From Escherichia phage GADS24: DNA of 64,000 nt. Each line of letters begins with the position of its first letter. The first letter of the stretch is position 1. Of the stretch, positions 1 through 45,354 are shown piece after piece. The notes below the pieces were generated by a model that saw only the letters and a program-made list of their open reading frames with translations, was not told the origin of the DNA and did no database searches. A program made the position numbers and the translations under genes. The DNA is taken from sequence record OQ703618.1. One strand, given 5' to 3'.

Positions 1-297
1 GCGAACTGCATAACCGGATACACGGATGGTCAGCTGCGGATATTTTTCCGGATGCTTAACTGCATCTTCCAGAGTTTCACGACGCAGAACGTTAACGTTC
101 AGGTGTTGACCACCTTCAATTTTAACTTTAGGTTGATGTTCAATTTCAATTTCACGGGCATTCAAACCGTAGAAAATTTCCGGGTCTACAATAGCGTCTT
201 CTTTAAAAGTCTTAGAGACGATAATCCGGGCTTGAGTACCGTCTTCAAAATAAATAGTGCCTTTATGTGCACCTTCAAGAATTTGATATGCTTTCAT
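1..297 (-). CDS. GrcA/YfiD-like autonomous glycyl-radical cofactor (T4 Y06I-like); 3' end beyond window start
   Basis: Minus-strand ORF from ATG at 295-297 with GAGG SD; translation ends ...[40 protein letters not shown], matching the E. coli GrcA glycyl-radical motif; frame runs off the window edge. Confidence 0.8.
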
Positions 298-303
298 ATA
301 ACC

Positions 304-612
304 TCAATTAGAAAATAAATTTATCCAAGTCTTTTCTTTAATCAAAAATGGGTCGGAATTAAACGCCATTAAACTTTGAGTGATTAATCCCTTAAATGGC
401 CCATCAATAAATTCCATTTTGAAATGCGGAATACTAGTCATTAACCGTGTATTAGGAGCAGTACAAAGAACATGCTGCCCTGCGAACGGACCTTTAGTCA
501 AACGATATCGTTTAGGTTTAAAATGGTAGATCTCGTAATTTTCTACAAGAGCCCTTTTATTGCATACTGGGCTGTTATAACAATACTCAAAAACTTCAAT
601 AGTGGTCATCAT
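304..612 (-). CDS. hypothetical protein (102 aa)
   Basis: ORF track 304..675; likely start at ATG 610-612, which overlaps the upstream TGA (ATGATGA). Confidence 0.45.
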   Translation of the reverse strand: MMTTIEVFEYCYNSPVCNKRALVENYEIYHFKPKRYRLTKGPFAGQHVLCTAPNTRLMTSIPHFKMEFIDGPFKGLITQSLMAFNSDPFLIKEKTWINLFSN

Positions 613-1148
613 TGCATTCCAATCACAAAAAATTGAGGACGAGCAATACCGCCGATGCAATATTTGCTTTTGCAACAGTACTGTACTGATTTAATATGGA
701 CATTGTAAATCTTATCCATATCAGGAGCTTTAATAGGCTCGTCAATTATATACAGAATACGAGAAAGCGTTAATCCACGGAATTTAGAACCTTCATTGCC
801 AATAAAACTACGGACAGAATCAGTAAATAAACGGAATCGAATATCGTCGCTAGAATAACGAGAAAATTCTTTTTTAATATTGTCAGCAGAAATTTTAGAA
901 TAAGCTGAAGTATTAGAAAGAACAATAACTGTTCCACCATCGTGCAGCCAATTAACGGCAAAATTAGTTACTGCAGTTGATTTACCGGATTGTCTGCCAC
1001 CATCTAAACGAAGTGTACAGTACTGCTTGAGTACGTCTTCAAATGGTGGGATATAACCGTTCTTACAAATTTCTTCTACTCTAGCATCAGAATGGTGTGT
1101 AAAAGCATTCATCAGGGATAGATAAGGTCCAGTTAAAAATGTTCTCAT
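609..1148 (-). CDS. P-loop NTPase-like hypothetical protein
   Basis: Walker A-like GGRQSGKST and Walker B-like ILYIIDE; start moved to ATG 1146-1148 preceded by AAGAGAAATAAT SD-like sequence. Confidence 0.5.
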   Translation of the reverse strand: MRTFLTGPYLSLMNAFTHHSDARVEEICKNGYIPPFEDVLKQYCTLRLDGGRQSGKSTAVTNFAVNWLHDGGTVIVLSNTSAYSKISADNIKKEFSRYSSDDIRFRLFTDSVRSFIGNEGSKFRGLTLSRILYIIDEPIKAPDMDKIYNVHIKSVQYCCKSKYCIGGIARPQFFVIGMQ

Positions 1149-1320
1149 ATTATTTCTCTTAAGGTTTGGGCCATTCCGTGGCACATGTTATGTCCTTCGA
1201 CTCGCTATGTAAACCCATTACCGCATTGCGCTCGACCTTATTACAGGTTGGAAAAGGTACATCACTCAGAGGACTCGACGTTCATGAGGAGAGGTTGCGT
1301 TTCCCTTTATTAGGCAAGAA

Positions 1321-1650
1321 TTATACTCTAGGCTTTTGAGCTTGTTTGGTATTGGATTCCCATGCGGCTTTGGTAATTTTGTTAGCGGCATAACCAAAGG
1401 CATTAGATAGAACACCTTTAGAGTTGAATACATCCAATCCAATAAGTACACCGGCTGTGTTAAATTTAGGAGCAAAGTACGCATTAGTTTTAGAAAGAGC
1501 TTTTTTCAATTCAGGGTCTTGAACCAAGCCATCAAAAATGCCTTTACTATTTACTTTATATGTTACTTTGGGATTTTTACCTTCTTCGATAGCAGCTTTC
1601 TGTTCCGCAGATAATGTAACTTCAGTGATAAACTCTTGATATGTTTTCAT
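1321..1650 (-). CDS. internal protein (IP)-like, capsid-targeting N-terminus
   Basis: Begins MKTYQEFITE, as in T4 IPI/II/III; AGGAA SD; lies in the denV/e neighbourhood. Confidence 0.65.
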   Translation of the reverse strand: MKTYQEFITEVTLSAEQKAAIEEGKNPKVTYKVNSKGIFDGLVQDPELKKALSKTNAYFAPKFNTAGVLIGLDVFNSKGVLSNAFGYAANKITKAAWESNTKQAQKPRV

Positions 1651-1675
1651 TTTGTTCCTATTGTTTTAATTTATG

Positions 1676-1990
1676 TTATTCTTTAGGGAAGTTTTTAGAG
1701 TATGCATCGTAAAGTTTATTACCAATACGGCGGAAGACTTTAGCTGCAAAACGGTTTTCAGGGTTTTTAATCATGATTTGCATCATGTAAGTTCCTGCAT
1801 CCGAAAGAGCTTCTTCATAGTACCCATTAATTTCTTTAAGAGTCCTACGTTTACCACCAGGACCATCAACAGTAATTTTCCATTTACCTGTAGAAGTGCG
1901 GCTCGGTGGCTCAACTTGTTCAATCCAAATATAACCACCTTCAACGCGTTGGTTGGCGGATTCTGCAATAAATTCTTTATACGTTTTCAT
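1676..1990 (-). CDS. internal protein (IP)-like, capsid-targeting N-terminus
   Basis: Begins MKTYKEFIAE; AAGGAAA SD; GTTTAC-18-TATAAT promoter upstream. Confidence 0.65.
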   Translation of the reverse strand: MKTYKEFIAESANQRVEGGYIWIEQVEPPSRTSTGKWKITVDGPGGKRRTLKEINGYYEEALSDAGTYMMQIMIKNPENRFAAKVFRRIGNKLYDAYSKNFPKE

Positions 1991-2018
1991 TTTTGTTTCC
2001 TTGTTTGTTTTGATAAAG

Positions 2019-2051
2019 TAATTATACTATATTAATACTTAAGCGTAAACA
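2019..2051 (-). promoter_or_regulatory. sigma70/T4 early-type promoter (GTTTAC -35, 18 nt, TATAAT -10)
   Basis: Minus strand reads GTTTAC (rc of 2045-2050), 18-nt spacer, TATAAT (rc of 2021-2026); upstream of IP-like gene 1676..1990. Confidence 0.5.
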
Positions 2052-2053
2052 AT

Positions 2054-2314
2054 TTAAGCTTTACCGCCAGAAATAATTCCGAAGTTGTTAAAATCGTATC
2101 CAATATCGTCAACATCTACTTTAGGGCTTGCTACAACATAAGCAATTTCACTACGTTTTGCATAGGTGTTGATTTCTTTACCATCGCCACCTAAGAAAAA
2201 ATACCCATTACGTTTTAATGAGCCAAAGTCTTCCGCATCACCAATGAAAGCTTTAACTTTAAATTTAGGACCTTTGGCATCTGCTTCAGCGATAAATTCT
2301 TGATACATTTTCAT
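2054..2314 (-). CDS. internal protein (IP)-like, capsid-targeting N-terminus
   Basis: Begins MKMYQEFIAE; SD AAGGA overlaps the denV stop. Confidence 0.65.
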   Translation of the reverse strand: MKMYQEFIAEADAKGPKFKVKAFIGDAEDFGSLKRNGYFFLGGDGKEINTYAKRSEIAYVVASPKVDVDDIGYDFNNFGIISGGKA

Positions 2315-2320
2315 TTTTCC

Positions 2321-2734
2321 TTAGTAAATTGATTTACCATAGTATTTGTACCAAGTAGGACGTTGAGCAATTTTTTCATCTAAGCGTGCTTGACTTATCG
2401 CAATGGACGCTTCGGACGGGACATAATTATTACGAAATTCGGCAGGGATGTCGGAAATATCCTGGACAGTCGTGTCCTTGATTTTGAAACCACGTTTCAA
2501 GCATTCAGCGATTAGCTCGATTTGACGTAAACGTAAAAATTCGAGTTTGTCGTAAAAGAATGTTACGTGACCTGTGCCTAAGATAAATGTTGGAGAGATT
2601 TTAAAATCCTTTACACGTTTACCGTTTTGAACATGTTTACGGACTGCACCAAATACGCGTGGTAATTCACGATACTCAGCCATAAGATGTTGGTCGGTCA
2701 GTTCAGAAACAAGTGTTAAATTGATACGAGTCAT
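2321..2734 (-). CDS. denV: endonuclease V (pyrimidine-dimer DNA glycosylase)
   Basis: [12 protein letters not shown]...[19 protein letters not shown]...[10 protein letters not shown] matches T4 DenV; start placed at MTRINL ATG (2732-2734) with GGAGGA SD. Confidence 0.9.
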
Positions 2735-2792
2735 AATTTCCTCCAAGTAGTTGATGAATGTATAGTATCAAAGTCCTTGGAGGAAGTAAACA

Positions 2793-3074
2793 CTATTTTT
2801 CTGAAGCGCCTGAAATATATTTTTCAAGACGTTGTTTCATCAGCGAGCCGTTCTTAGCGATTTCTTCCGGTTTATCGCACATACGCAACAAGGCTTCAAG
2901 CTTAACGATATCGCTGGTACGTTCAAATTTGCGAGTATCTATCTTACTAGCAAGTTCAGAAATACGTGCTAATAGACTTTCGGCTTCAACCAAAGCTGCA
3001 CCTAGCTTAGTTGCAAATGTGTCAGTAGCTTCGTTAAGAATAGATTCTGATAAAAATTCACTATATGTTTTCAT
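2793..3074 (-). CDS. internal protein (IP)-like, capsid-targeting N-terminus
   Basis: Begins [10 protein letters not shown] at ATG 3072-3074, overlapping the e stop (ATGA); ORF track has a 5-codon upstream extension. Confidence 0.65.
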
Positions 3075-3559
3075 ATATACGCTTTCCAAGTTCCTGTTTT
3101 AAATGTTGAGATTACGCGTTTCGCGCGATTAGGTGTCTGACGATACCATTTAGATTGGGCTAGATTTACTGCCGCTTCATCCCAACGTTTCTGTTGAAGC
3201 ATACGAAGAGAATTAGTAAAACCAGCGACGCCTGCTACACCCATTTGGAAGACCATATTGACCAATGCACATCGACGAACCGCATCTAAAGAATCATATA
3301 CCGGTTTAAGTTTAGCATTACCCAAGATTCCGCGAACGGCTTTATCAACGTCTTCATTAAATAGCTTTTCAGCCTCATCAAGGGTAATTGTACCGTTGCA
3401 TTTACGTCCGATCATTCTGTCAAGTTCAGCTTTAGCTACGGCTAAAGACGGGTTCTTTGTTACTAAATGGCCTATGCCAATCGTCCAAAAGCCTTCAGTG
3501 TCTTTGTATAAAGACAGTCTAAGACCTTCGTCATTACGAAGCATTTCAAATATATTCAT
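3071..3559 (-). CDS. e: endolysin (T4 lysozyme, muramidase)
   Basis: [15 protein letters not shown]...TIGIGHL...TGTW near-identical to T4 lysozyme; start at MNIF ATG (3557-3559) with GGGAGG SD. Confidence 0.95.
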
Positions 3560-3596
3560 AATACCTCCCACGTTTATAGGAGGTATTTATTACTTA
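3560..3596 (-). promoter_or_regulatory. RBS-sequestering stem-loop upstream of e with TATAAACG/TATAAGTA late-promoter-like motifs
   Basis: 8-bp inverted repeat ATACCTCC (3561-3568) / GGAGGTAT (3578-3585) includes the e Shine-Dalgarno; minus strand carries TATAAACG in the loop. Confidence 0.45.
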
Positions 3597-4052
3597 TAGG
3601 AGGGTAGTGAGCACCTTATATAATGATTTGCCCATTACATATTCCCATTGAGAAGGTTTAATTAAAGCGAATGCATCAAATTCAGGAATCTGTCGTCCGT
3701 CTGGGAAGGTATGATAGGAATTACAAACACTGTTTCTGAATTGCTCGTGCTCTACAGGGATGGTATATAGGAACAGATGAATATTCTTATTGTCTGAGTA
3801 ATGATGTTCACCTAGGTCTTTCAGGAAGGCAGGGACATATTGTGTGAACCCAGTTTCTTCTTCGCATTCACGAATAGCGGCTTCAATAGGAGATTCACCG
3901 GGCTCGACACGACCTTTAGGAATATCCCACCGATGAGCTAAAGAACCTTTAGGACGAGAACCAGTTACACGCCCCATGAATAATTCTTTATCTTCTGTAA
4001 GGAAAATAATACCGGCCGATAGTTCTTTCACTTTATTTTTCTTACTCATCAT
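3594..4052 (-). CDS. nudE: Nudix hydrolase
   Basis: Nudix box GRVEPGESPIEAAIRECEEETG (Gx5Ex7REUxEExGU); immediately downstream of e on minus strand as in T4. Confidence 0.85.
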   Translation of the reverse strand: MMSKKNKVKELSAGIIFLTEDKELFMGRVTGSRPKGSLAHRWDIPKGRVEPGESPIEAAIRECEEETGFTQYVPAFLKDLGEHHYSDNKNIHLFLYTIPVEHEQFRNSVCNSYHTFPDGRQIPEFDAFALIKPSQWEYVMGKSLYKVLTTLL

Positions 4053-4278
4053 CTCGGTCCCATGATTTGGACATTAATTCGGACATAAATTCTTCAATGC
4101 GCGTTTCTTTAGATGGACTTTCACTATCAGATATTTGGACCATATAATCAGAAATAGGTCGGAACATATCCAAGTCGCTTTCTAAATCTTCTTTGATTTT
4201 CTCTTCTGACGTTCCGGTATCATAGGAATACAGATAAGAATCACATGATTCTGATTTAATGTAAATTGCTATACTCAT
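4042..4278 (-). CDS. hypothetical small acidic protein
   Basis: ORF track 4042..4293; likely start at ATG overlapping upstream TGA (ATGA) with AGGAA SD. Confidence 0.4.
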   Translation of the reverse strand: MSIAIYIKSESCDSYLYSYDTGTSEEKIKEDLESDLDMFRPISDYMVQISDSESPSKETRIEEFMSELMSKSWDRDDE

Positions 4279-4766
4279 CTCAAATTCCTGCATTCGGTAA
4301 TAAAACGTTCAACTTCATTATTCTTGGCTTTTATCTTGTCTTTACGTTCCTGTAAACTACTTTTAATAAGACTAATAATGATGCCTATAGTACCTCCACC
4401 AATAATACCACCAACAACACTTATGATACTAGATGCTAATAAGATAGCGATAATATCAACAAAACCGAAAGAACTCACCTTAGTACTAAAAAACCATACC
4501 GACGGTACAAATATAATCCATCCTGTTATCCATTGGCACTTATTGAAAAACTTTTCAAGCTCAGCTTGAGTTGTTCGTATTACTTCATCGATAGGTTGAT
4601 ATCCATTAATGTATCTGTTCACGATAATACCTGCTGGCTGGTCGATTTTAAATTCTTGGCAAATACGTTTCACTAAGTAGGATGGACATCCTGTCCAATC
4701 TACTGAATAGTATGAAATACCTTCATTGCCATCGTCTATATTAGACCAATATGTTTTGTTAATCAT
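4275..4766 (-). CDS. hypothetical membrane protein with C-terminal FIxECR tail
   Basis: Hydrophobic, Gly-rich C-terminal half; ends ...ERFITECRNLR; start overlaps upstream stop (TAATG). Confidence 0.5.
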   Translation of the reverse strand: MINKTYWSNIDDGNEGISYYSVDWTGCPSYLVKRICQEFKIDQPAGIIVNRYINGYQPIDEVIRTTQAELEKFFNKCQWITGWIIFVPSVWFFSTKVSSFGFVDIIAILLASSIISVVGGIIGGGTIGIIISLIKSSLQERKDKIKAKNNEVERFITECRNLR

Positions 4767-12210: not shown

Positions 12211-12287
<77 letters not shown>

Positions 12288-12290
12288 GAT

Positions 12291-12365
12291 TGGTGACCCT
12301 GGCTGGTTTCGATCCAGCTACCTATCAGTTATGAGCTGACAGCTCTCCCATTGAGCTACAGGGCC
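12291..12365 (-). tRNA. tRNA with CAT anticodon (Met, or Ile if lysidine-modified)
   Basis: Hand-folded 75 nt: acceptor GGCCCTG/CAGGGTC, D-arm GCTC-AATGGGA-GAGC, anticodon stem GTCAG/CTGAT with loop CT-CAT-AA, T-arm GCTGG-ATCGAAA-CCAGC, encoded ACCA. Confidence 0.8.
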
Positions 12366-13871: not shown

Positions 13872-14159
13872 TTACAGAAGAGTTTTTGCAATAATTTTAA
13901 GCTGAGCTACAGAAATATGCTTAGCTTTAAACAGTGCAGTCTCTTCAGCCGGAGAGATAACAATAGTAGCGCCATCTTTCTTAGCAGACCATCCATCCCC
14001 TAAGTAAACAGTACCTTTTACTTCTTCGCCGTCAACCAGACTAATCATTGGTTTACCCTCACGTCCTTTATTTGCTTTAATAACTTCGGAAGTAAGGGTT
14101 GCTTCGGTCAGAGTAGAAACGTTAGCATCAGGTGATATAAATTCTTTATAGGTTTTCAT
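13872..14159 (-). CDS. internal protein I-like (IP with capsid-targeting N-terminus)
   Basis: Begins MKTYKEFIS; 95 aa like T4 IPI precursor; adjacent to 57B as ipI is in T4. Confidence 0.6.
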   Translation of the reverse strand: MKTYKEFISPDANVSTLTEATLTSEVIKANKGREGKPMISLVDGEEVKGTVYLGDGWSAKKDGATIVISPAEETALFKAKHISVAQLKIIAKTLL

Positions 14160-43442: not shown

Positions 43443-43867
43443 TGTATCTTATCCCTGAATCTTATGAATTGGTACTCGAAAATGTCGAAGCACTTATTCC
43501 TGAAGCACAGGGCCGAATCGATGCATTGTCTTCTGCTCTCGATATTGACGATATAAATACTATTATCGAGAACATGCTTGAAACTGAAACGGATTTAGCT
43601 GTTGCAATGGCTTCCATTATTAATGAAGAACAGTTAAATGAGTTTATCGTTAAACATGTTTCTTCTCGTGGTGAAGTCACCCGCACTAAAGACCGTAAAA
43701 CTCGTGAACGTAACGCGTTCCAAACAACTGGTCTTTCTAAAGCAAAACGTAGACAAATCGCTCGTAAGGTCGTTAAAGCTAAAAAAGCTAACCCTTCAGG
43801 CCAAGTTAAAGGCTTGCGTAAGCGTAAAAAAGCTCTTAAACGTCGTAAAGCATTAGGATTAAGCTAA
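43442..43867 (+). CDS. 68: prohead core protein gp68
   Basis: 141 aa, basic C-terminus. Confidence 0.8.
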
Positions 43868-44508
43868 TGAATAAACCCGAGTTACTTATTGAAACTTGGG
43901 GTCAACCTGGTGAGATTATTGATGGCGTTCCAATGTTGGAATCTCATGATGGAAAAGATTCTGGCTTAAAACCAGGGCTTTATATAGAAGGTATTTTTCT
44001 TCAGGCAGAGGTTGTTAACCGAAATAAACGTTTATATCCTAAACGTGTTTTGGAAAAAGCCGTAAGCGACTATATTAAAGAACAAGTCGCAACCAAACAA
44101 GCCCTTGGAGAATTAAATCATCCACCTCGTGCAAATGTTGACCCTATGCAAGCCGCTATCATTATTGAAGATATGTGGTGGAAAGGAAACGATGTATATG
44201 GACGTGCTAGAATTATTGAAGGTGACCATGGCCCCGGCGATAAATTAGCTGCTAATATACGAGCTGGTTGGATTCCAGGTGTTTCCTCTCGTGGTCTTGG
44301 TTCTTTAACCGACACCAATAAAGGGTACCGTATCGTGAACGAAGGATTTAAATTAACCGTCGGTGTAGATGCCGTATGGGGTCCTTCTGCTCCAGATGCT
44401 TGGGTTACTCCTAAACAAATATCAGAATCAGAAAATTCGGTGGAAATCACCAAAAACAGTGCTGACGAAGCATTTAAAGCTCTCGCAGAGAGTTTAAAAG
44501 CATTATAA
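43867..44508 (+). CDS. 21: prohead core protease gp21
   Basis: 213 aa, position before scaffold gene. Confidence 0.9.
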   Translation: MNKPELLIETWGQPGEIIDGVPMLESHDGKDSGLKPGLYIEGIFLQAEVVNRNKRLYPKRVLEKAVSDYIKEQVATKQALGELNHPPRANVDPMQAAIIIEDMWWKGNDVYGRARIIEGDHGPGDKLAANIRAGWIPGVSSRGLGSLTDTNKGYRIVNEGFKLTVGVDAVWGPSAPDAWVTPKQISESENSVEITKNSADEAFKALAESLKAL

Positions 44509-44541: not shown

Positions 44542-45354
44542 ATGATCAAAGAACAACTTTTGAAAGAAGCTCAGAACATCGAGACTTCAGTTGCTCTTAA
44601 TAGTGTTTTCGAATCAGTAGAACTGTCTCCGGACGTTAAAGCTAATTTCAGCACTGTATTCGAAGCCACCGTTAAGCAGGAAGCAGTCAAACTGGCTGAA
44701 TCTCATATCAAAGCCATCGCCGAAAAGGCCGAAGAAGAAGTTGAAAAGGCTAAAGAAGATGCTGAAGAGAAAGCTGATAAAAAATTGGCTGAACAAGCTT
44801 CTAAATTCCTGGACCATCTTGCAAAAGAATGGCTCGCAGAAAACCAAATCGCAGTTGATAAAGGCATTAAAGCTGATTTGTTCGAATCCATGCTTGGTGG
44901 TCTGAAAGAACTGTTTGTTGAACATAACGTTGTTGTTCCAGAAGAATCTGTAGATGTTGTAGCAGAAATGGAAGAAGAGCTGGCCGAACATAAAGAAGAA
45001 ACCGCTCGTTTGTTCGAAGAAGTTACCAAACGTGATGCATATATCAATTACGTTCAGCGTGAAACCGCTATTAATGAAAGCGTAAAAGACCTGACTGAAT
45101 CTCAGAAAGAAAAAGTTATTGGCCTGGTTGAAGGTATGGATTATTCTGACGCATTTGGTACTAAGTTAACTGCTATTGTAGAAATGGTTAAAGGTTCTAC
45201 TAAAGAAGAAGCCGCTATTACCGAAAGTATAAATACAGTTGACAATGACGCTGCCGGTCTTAATTTTGTTGCCGAAGCAGTTGACACTACCACAACTCAG
45301 GTAGAACAGAATTCTAATGTAAGTTTATATGCGAAAGTCGCATCTCGTTTCTAA
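44542..45354 (+). CDS. 22: prohead scaffold core protein gp22
   Basis: 270 aa, highly acidic and helical. Confidence 0.9.
   Translation: MIKEQLLKEAQNIETSVALNSVFESVELSPDVKANFSTVFEATVKQEAVKLAESHIKAIAEKAEEEVEKAKEDAEEKADKKLAEQASKFLDHLAKEWLAENQIAVDKGIKADLFESMLGGLKELFVEHNVVVPEESVDVVAEMEEELAEHKEETARLFEEVTKRDAYINYVQRETAINESVKDLTESQKEKVIGLVEGMDYSDAFGTKLTAIVEMVKGSTKEEAAITESINTVDNDAAGLNFVAEAVDTTTTQVEQNSNVSLYAKVASRF
45228..45235 (+). promoter_or_regulatory. T4 late promoter TATAAATA inside 3' end of gene 22 (candidate P23)
   Basis: Exact TATAAATA about 137 nt upstream of gene 23 ATG. Confidence 0.4.

Follow-up and report, generated by a model that had tools for sequence, protein, structure and literature searches.

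What would four genes clustered at one locus of a T4-type phage be for, if their products begin alike and then have nothing detectable in common? The question is raised by Escherichia phage GADS24 (sequence record OQ703618.1), in which four such genes lie between the lysozyme gene e and a vs.8 homologue. We analysed a stretch of 64 000 nt from this record, referred to below as the window. It belongs to a Mosigvirus, and over its first 6 kb it shares 97.3% identity with Escherichia phage JN02 and 95.7% with RB69, two other Mosigvirus phages. The explanation that we favour, at a probability of roughly 60%, is that the four products are inhibitors of type IV restriction nucleases that would be packaged in the phage head, trimmed by the prohead protease gp21 and injected with the DNA. 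The four genes, here called IPa to IPd, are as follows.

2793-3074, minus strand: IPa, 93 amino acids (aa); orthologue of RB69ORF127c, of the Ip5/'internal head protein' family; isoelectric point (pI) of the predicted mature protein 8.1.
2054-2314, minus strand: IPb, 86 aa, leader MKMYQEFIAE; RB69ORF125c family; predicted mature protein ~76 aa, pI 6.4.
1676-1990, minus strand: IPc, 104 aa, leader MKTYKEFIAE; orthologue of RB69ORF124c, Ip10; predicted mature protein ~94 aa, pI 9.6.
1321-1650, minus strand: IPd, 109 aa, leader MKTYQEFITE; RB69ORF123c family; predicted mature protein ~99 aa, pI 9.7.

The interval 1321-3074 thus has the IPd stop codon and the IPa start codon as its exact limits, and e falls just outside it. 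For IPa, the list of open reading frames (ORFs) gives a TTG start at 3089; the ATG at 3074 was taken, as annotated in RB69.

A first, sequence-only reading of this DNA had singled out four ORFs with the N-terminal leader of T4 internal proteins, and all four were found at these positions on the minus strand. In the six reading frames of the 64 kb window, four matches to the motif M[KR]x[YF]xxF[ILVM]xE were found, each at the start of one of the four ip ORFs, compared with a chance expectation of 0.01 matches (mean of 200 block shuffles of the window). At the DNA level, the leader is a 32 nt direct repeat present in four copies that are 75-84% identical. All four leaders follow the pattern MKxYxEF, and therefore contain the targeting residues Tyr4 and Phe7. 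The gp21 motif I/L-x-E occupies residues 8-10 as ITE in IPd, IAE in IPc and IPb, and LSE in IPa; IPa has a second candidate gp21 site, LNE at residues 13-15, that is conserved across the IPa family. The predicted mature proteins are 8.2-10.8 kDa in size. For T4 IPIII, Mullaney & Black 1996, as cited in PMC9026906, is the source for the statements that the first ten residues suffice for packaging into the head, even of foreign proteins, and that residues 4 and 7 serve targeting while residues 8 and 10 serve gp21 processing. The leader directs internal proteins to the gp22 core (PMC9026906).

The machinery that such leaders would need is encoded in the window, as is a fifth internal protein at a second locus:

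43867-44499, plus strand: gp21 prohead protease homologue (tblastn, 88% identity over 211 aa to T4 gp21).
44542-45351, plus strand: gp22 scaffolding-core homologue (tblastn, 77% identity over 270 aa to T4).
13872-14159, minus strand: IPI homologue, the fifth internal protein, 95 aa, 88% identical to T4 IPI, at the second ip locus.

The genes for gp68, gp67 and gp20 are also in the window. The leader of the IPI homologue is MKTYKEFISPDANVSTLTE, with the predicted cut before an alanine; its residues 8-10 are ISP, so that it falls outside the leader motif, and its processing site is LTE at residues 17-19. The array itself is placed from e to vs.8, collinear with RB69, T4, VR20 and SP18, and this is one of the two ip loci of the Tevenvirinae (e-denV-vs.8 and 57B-tRNA). 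The window has two tRNA genes (Arg-tct and Met-cat, 12211-12365, minus strand), corresponding to the two reported for RB69 versus eight in T4. The leader residues, the ip locus, the gp21 and gp22 genes and the annotated families together support the assignment of the four as T4-type internal proteins, and it is very probable that they are packaged, processed and injected.

Behind the leader, the four proteins are unrelated to one another. With the first ten residues removed, BLASTP found no match among the four bodies, and hhalign gave a probability below 3% for every pair in a set that also included T4 IPI, IPII and IPIII, Ip7 and Bas37_0260, bearing out the earlier description of sequences that diverge completely. 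No body matched Pfam, NCBIfam or any PDB sequence. The AlphaFold2 (AF2) model of IPc, the sole confident one (predicted local distance difference test score, pLDDT, 84.5), has a beta-beta-beta-alpha-beta-beta topology, and no significant fold relative was found for it among solved structures. The IPd model reached a pLDDT of only 52 from three near-identical sequences and was not used for fold searching; word-indexed homologue searches were shallow, at 2, 3 and 10 proteins. A resemblance of the bodies to known housekeeping folds, which the sequence-only reading had named as grounds for abandoning it, was thus not seen at the level of sequence families or in the confident model.

We also considered whether IPc and IPd are paralogues, as both fall in phrog_3966 and share 32% identity over 72 aa in full-length BLASTP. 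Once the leader was removed, the hhalign probability fell to 0.1-0.2%, and we attribute the common grouping to the shared leader, which appears to drive the clustering of unrelated bodies. This protein cluster, labelled 'unknown function', merges the Ip10 family with the RB69ORF123c family. Annotation based on PHROG will, therefore, both miss and merge internal proteins.

Which of these proteins were already known? The orthologues RB69ORF127c, 125c, 124c and 123c (of IPa, IPb, IPc and IPd, respectively) are all 'hypothetical protein' in the original RB69 record, and our literature search found no paper treating RB69ORF123c-127c as internal proteins. Three of the four families are, however, already annotated in other phage records, as Ip10, Ip5 and internal head protein. 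IPa falls in phrog_3499 'internal head protein' (E 1e-46) and shares 89% identity with VR20 'ip5'; its body is 100% identical to that in the Tequatrovirus Kha5h, and its family is named internal head protein in UniRef/RefSeq. IPa is also 47% identical to Bas37_0261 at the ipI locus, the ITE of which aligns with the LNE of IPa. IPb matches phrog_2667 'internal head protein' over residues 1-84 (E 5e-20) and is 73% identical to VR20 gp119 and SP18 gp123; several of the 217 phage records of its family are annotated as internal head protein. IPc is identical to Ip10 of phage Pol (CAA84455.1) at 92 of 97 residues (95%), shares a 90% cluster with it, and is 72% identical to Ip10 of SP18/VR20. By sequence, IPc is an Ip10 allele, in a family of 189 phage records from Mosigvirus, Tequatrovirus (97% identical in SH7), Gaprivervirus and Karamvirus.

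IPd is the least explored of the four. The 90 phage records of its family are all 'hypothetical', save one 'RNA polymerase ADP-ribosylase' that is an apparent misannotation, and its cluster names are likewise all hypothetical. The one distant relative of IPd is PSD9_187, a leader-bearing ORF of Dhakavirus with 36% identity at the same locus. When the IPd body was searched exhaustively with HMMER against 1.84 billion representatives, the matches were to the IPd family, to the Dhakavirus type and to repetitive giant proteins only; the giant proteins we took as compositional noise. Credible relatives of IPd were confined to Mosigvirus and Dhakavirus. On its sequence, IPd is a leader-bearing member of the same kind as the other three, one that carries no internal-protein annotation in the records examined.

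The layout of the array is best seen with its neighbours, which are all on the same strand:

3071-3559, minus strand: gene e (lysozyme), directly upstream of IPa.
2321-2734, minus strand: denV (endonuclease V, a pyrimidine-dimer glycosylase), identified by phrog_1183 (E 1.5e-62), Pfam Pyr_excise and the RB69 annotation.
609-1184, minus strand: vs.8 homologue, downstream of the array (phrog_1488).

Gene denV, between IPa and IPb, is embedded in the array without itself encoding an internal protein. The vs.8 homologue gave weak P-loop/AAA and terminase-N matches, under the Pfam thresholds, and its relatives are labelled 'p-loop containing nucleoside triphosphate hydrolase' in one record and 'endoribonuclease' in others. 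The comparison with T4 drawn by the sequence-only reading, of two ip genes at this locus, agrees with the T4 order e-ipIII-ipII-denV-vs.8. Its count of four ip genes with denV embedded was also right, but it overrated how unusual this is, because the arrangement is an ordinary one in Mosigvirus and Gaprivervirus. The Gaprivervirus VR20, for example, is annotated e-ip5-denV-ip10-'internal head protein'-ip7-vs.8, that is, with four ip genes and denV among them.

The contents of the locus vary widely among relatives. We took 80 denV loci from IMG/VR, ~36 of them from T4-type phages; the latter have from zero to four leader-bearing ORFs each, all on the denV strand. Across the IMG/VR loci and the reference proteins, at least 15 unrelated body families stand behind the leader, several of them unnamed. 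Phages with a denV 99% identical to that of the window show the order IPa-denV-IPb-IpIII, with IPd present or not, so that IpIII takes the place of Ip10 in close relatives, and the Mosigvirus PhAPEC2 has a remnant of IPb followed by IpIII. Ip10 homologues are found on either side of denV, depending on the Karamvirus. The swapping of cassettes among relatives points to exchange within and between genera. Polymorphism of the ip cassettes has been on record since Repoila et al. 1994, according to the citation in PMC12373910, and the kind of feature, its locus, layout and likely role are already known, as are three of the four families.

This variability bears on a further possibility, that the four are mainly structural, basic proteins of the head core or associated with the DNA, which serve head assembly or DNA packing and have an anti-defence role that is absent or secondary. 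The mature forms of IPc and IPd are indeed predicted to be basic, like T4 IPII and IPIII; head assembly is slower in T4 IPIII mutants, and T4 internal proteins bind DNA at low salt (PMC9026906). However, mature IPb would be neutral and IPa nearly so, the families are present, absent and swapped among near-identical phages, and T4 can grow without its internal proteins, all of which have now been assigned anti-restriction roles. We regard a mainly structural function as quite improbable.

The role that we propose instead is an early defence of the incoming DNA. The leader of ~10 residues would bind each protein to the gp22 scaffolding core during head assembly, and gp21 would cut after the Glu of [I/L]-x-E, which is residue 10 in three of the proteins (IPb, IPc and IPd); in IPa the cut would fall after residue 10, residue 15 or both. 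The mature proteins would be retained in the head alongside the DNA and enter the cell with it, where each body would most probably bind and block one particular host nuclease that attacks the modified cytosine DNA of the phage. Likely targets are GmrSD- or McrBC-like type IV restriction enzymes, and four unrelated bodies could give cover for four different enzyme variants. The precedents are close: T4 Ip1, Ip2 and Ip3 each inhibit a different GmrSD, without cross-protection (PMC12373910), and the leader-bearing Bas37_0260 inhibits McrBC (HIDEN-SEQ preprint, 10.1101/2025.11.20.689424). The DNA of RB69 contains arabinosyl-hydroxymethylcytosine (arabinosyl-hmC) and is restricted by enzymes of the GmrSD family (PMC6024577). 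Judged by analogy with these precedents, the chance that any one of the four is a type IV restriction inhibitor would be about even.

Several observations, on function, genetics and expression, weigh against our explanation. No body is homologous to a characterised type IV restriction inhibitor by BLASTP or hhalign, and for this reason the proposed function rests on analogy. The lack of homology does not in itself speak against a like function, because the known inhibitors are also mutually unrelated. Silas et al. tried ip4-10 against further GmrSD variants and saw no reproducible inhibition; by name, these genes include the Ip5 and Ip10 families, and the phages used were T2, T4 and T6, not an arabinosyl-hmC phage (PMC12373910 supplement). 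Both observations are as expected if the proteins are packaged and injected but have targets other than type IV nucleases, acting on other defences or in host takeover, as might be compared with the packaged T4 ADP-ribosyltransferase Alt. The hypermodified DNA of Mosigvirus is attacked by other nucleases too, such as the END nucleases (PMC12191111). Type IV enzymes are, however, the targets of all four internal proteins with known targets, and proteins of 8-11 kDa without an enzymatic fold are likelier to be binders than enzymes, and such other targets seem to us unlikely.

A literature search found no Mosigvirus virion proteome that would place the four proteins in the head. Moreover, three of the four RB69 orthologues carry lesions in the reference sequence (AY303349, 2821-4575, corresponding to 1321-3074 of the window), while all four genes are intact in the window. 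In ORF127c, a -1/+1 double frameshift scrambles leader residues 5-12; in ORF124c, the insertion of one G (+1) truncates the conserved C-terminus; and in ORF123c, Glu10 at the cleavage site is replaced by Ala. Lesions in three of four orthologues indicate that these genes are dispensable, at least in the laboratory, and they could reflect decay of a laboratory stock or sequence errors from 2003.

The signals from which the array might be expressed are the following:

3560-3598, minus strand: leader of e, with one-mismatch late-promoter-like octamers TATAAGTA and AATAAATA, and a hairpin.
2021-2049, minus strand: sigma-70-type promoter-like site TTTACG-17-TATAAT, upstream of IPc (consensus scan, 10 of 12 matches).

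The exact late promoter TATAAATA is absent from positions 1-4300, where one-mismatch versions only were found; at the equivalent place upstream of e, T4 has two exact copies. The clearest promoter-like site in the array is of the early sigma-70 type, and may add early expression. The e-leader hairpin has 12 bp, AUACCUCCUAUAAACGUGGGAGGUAU (-16.3 kcal/mol, z -3.1), and pairs the Shine-Dalgarno sequence of e; the octamers lie just upstream. It resembles the known translational block on early transcripts of T4 gene e. The stop codon of e and the start codon of IPa overlap as ATGA (3071-3074), an overlap likewise annotated in RB69, VR20, PhAPEC2, Kha5h and CC31, which suggests that translation of the first ip gene is coupled to that of the lysozyme gene. 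Because of the near-consensus late octamers upstream of e and the e/IPa overlap, we consider late read-through from e to be the probable expression route of the array, with transcription through e and the ip genes likely to begin in the e leader. No convincing terminator was found after IPd.

The sigma-70-like site and the lack of an exact late promoter in the array would also fit the idea that the leaders are evolutionary remnants, and that the proteins stay unpackaged and act only once they have been made inside the infected cell; a leaderless T4 Ip3 is still functional if the host expresses it (PMC9391042). Against this stands the conservation of the leader at the amino-acid level, in all four proteins and in no fewer than 15 body families, whereas the bodies themselves have diverged completely. 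Such a pattern indicates selection on the leader itself, and ten residues of leader are enough to package foreign proteins in T4. We therefore hold it to be highly improbable that the leaders are remnants, and retain the explanation of packaged, injected inhibitors.

If that explanation is right, what makes the array worth pursuing is the moment at which its products would act. Because internal proteins enter together with the DNA, ahead of all phage gene expression, they are the first phage products that host immunity encounters. The only ones with known targets are Ip1, Ip2, Ip3 and one Bas37 protein, in each case a type IV restriction enzyme. The four proteins of GADS24 are reasonable candidates for new inhibitor-nuclease pairs in a lineage with unusual DNA modification (arabinosyl-hmC in RB69), and may help in explaining the host range of Mosigvirus therapy phages. 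The value of the locus lies in a well-defined list of candidates, IPd above all, rather than in discovery. We would speculate, while considering it unlikely, that IPd is injected and inhibits a defence with which no internal protein has yet been connected; under that reading its target could be a nuclease or glycosylase that recognises arabinosyl-hmC, or a system outside type IV restriction.

How, then, does the array compare with known systems? IPc and Ip10 (of phage Pol, and also annotated in SP18, VR7 and VR20) share the same locus as well as the high identity given above, and there is essentially no difference between them. IPa resembles VR20 ip5 and Bas37_0261, with a conserved [I/L]-x-E at residues 13-15, and its Ip5 name rests on a GenBank note ('similar to T6 Ip5'); unlike IPa, the Ip5-type relatives in Tequatrovirus sit in the other ip locus, 57B-tRNA.

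Close counterparts of the array are T4 IPII and IPIII (Ip2 and Ip3), which have the ECOR21 GmrSD and the ECOR17 GmrSD, respectively, as their known targets. They share with the array the locus, the strand, the I-x-E motif, the gp21/gp22 machinery and an identical or nearly identical leader (MKTYQEFIAE), and IPc and IPd are of similar size and basic charge. They differ in that the bodies have no detectable similarity, in gene number (four versus two) and in the position of denV, which is inside the array here and downstream in T4. The packaging and processing logic is also that of T4 IPI (Ip1), the inhibitor of the GmrSD of strain CT596, of which the window has its own homologue, but none of the four bodies is similar to IPI and the IPI propeptide is 19 residues long. 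Bas37_0260 has the same leader, a small size and an ip locus, whereas its body resembles none of the four. The Dar proteins of phage P1 are likewise packaged in the capsid, injected and protective of the incoming DNA, but are unrelated proteins that take another packaging route and act against type I restriction.

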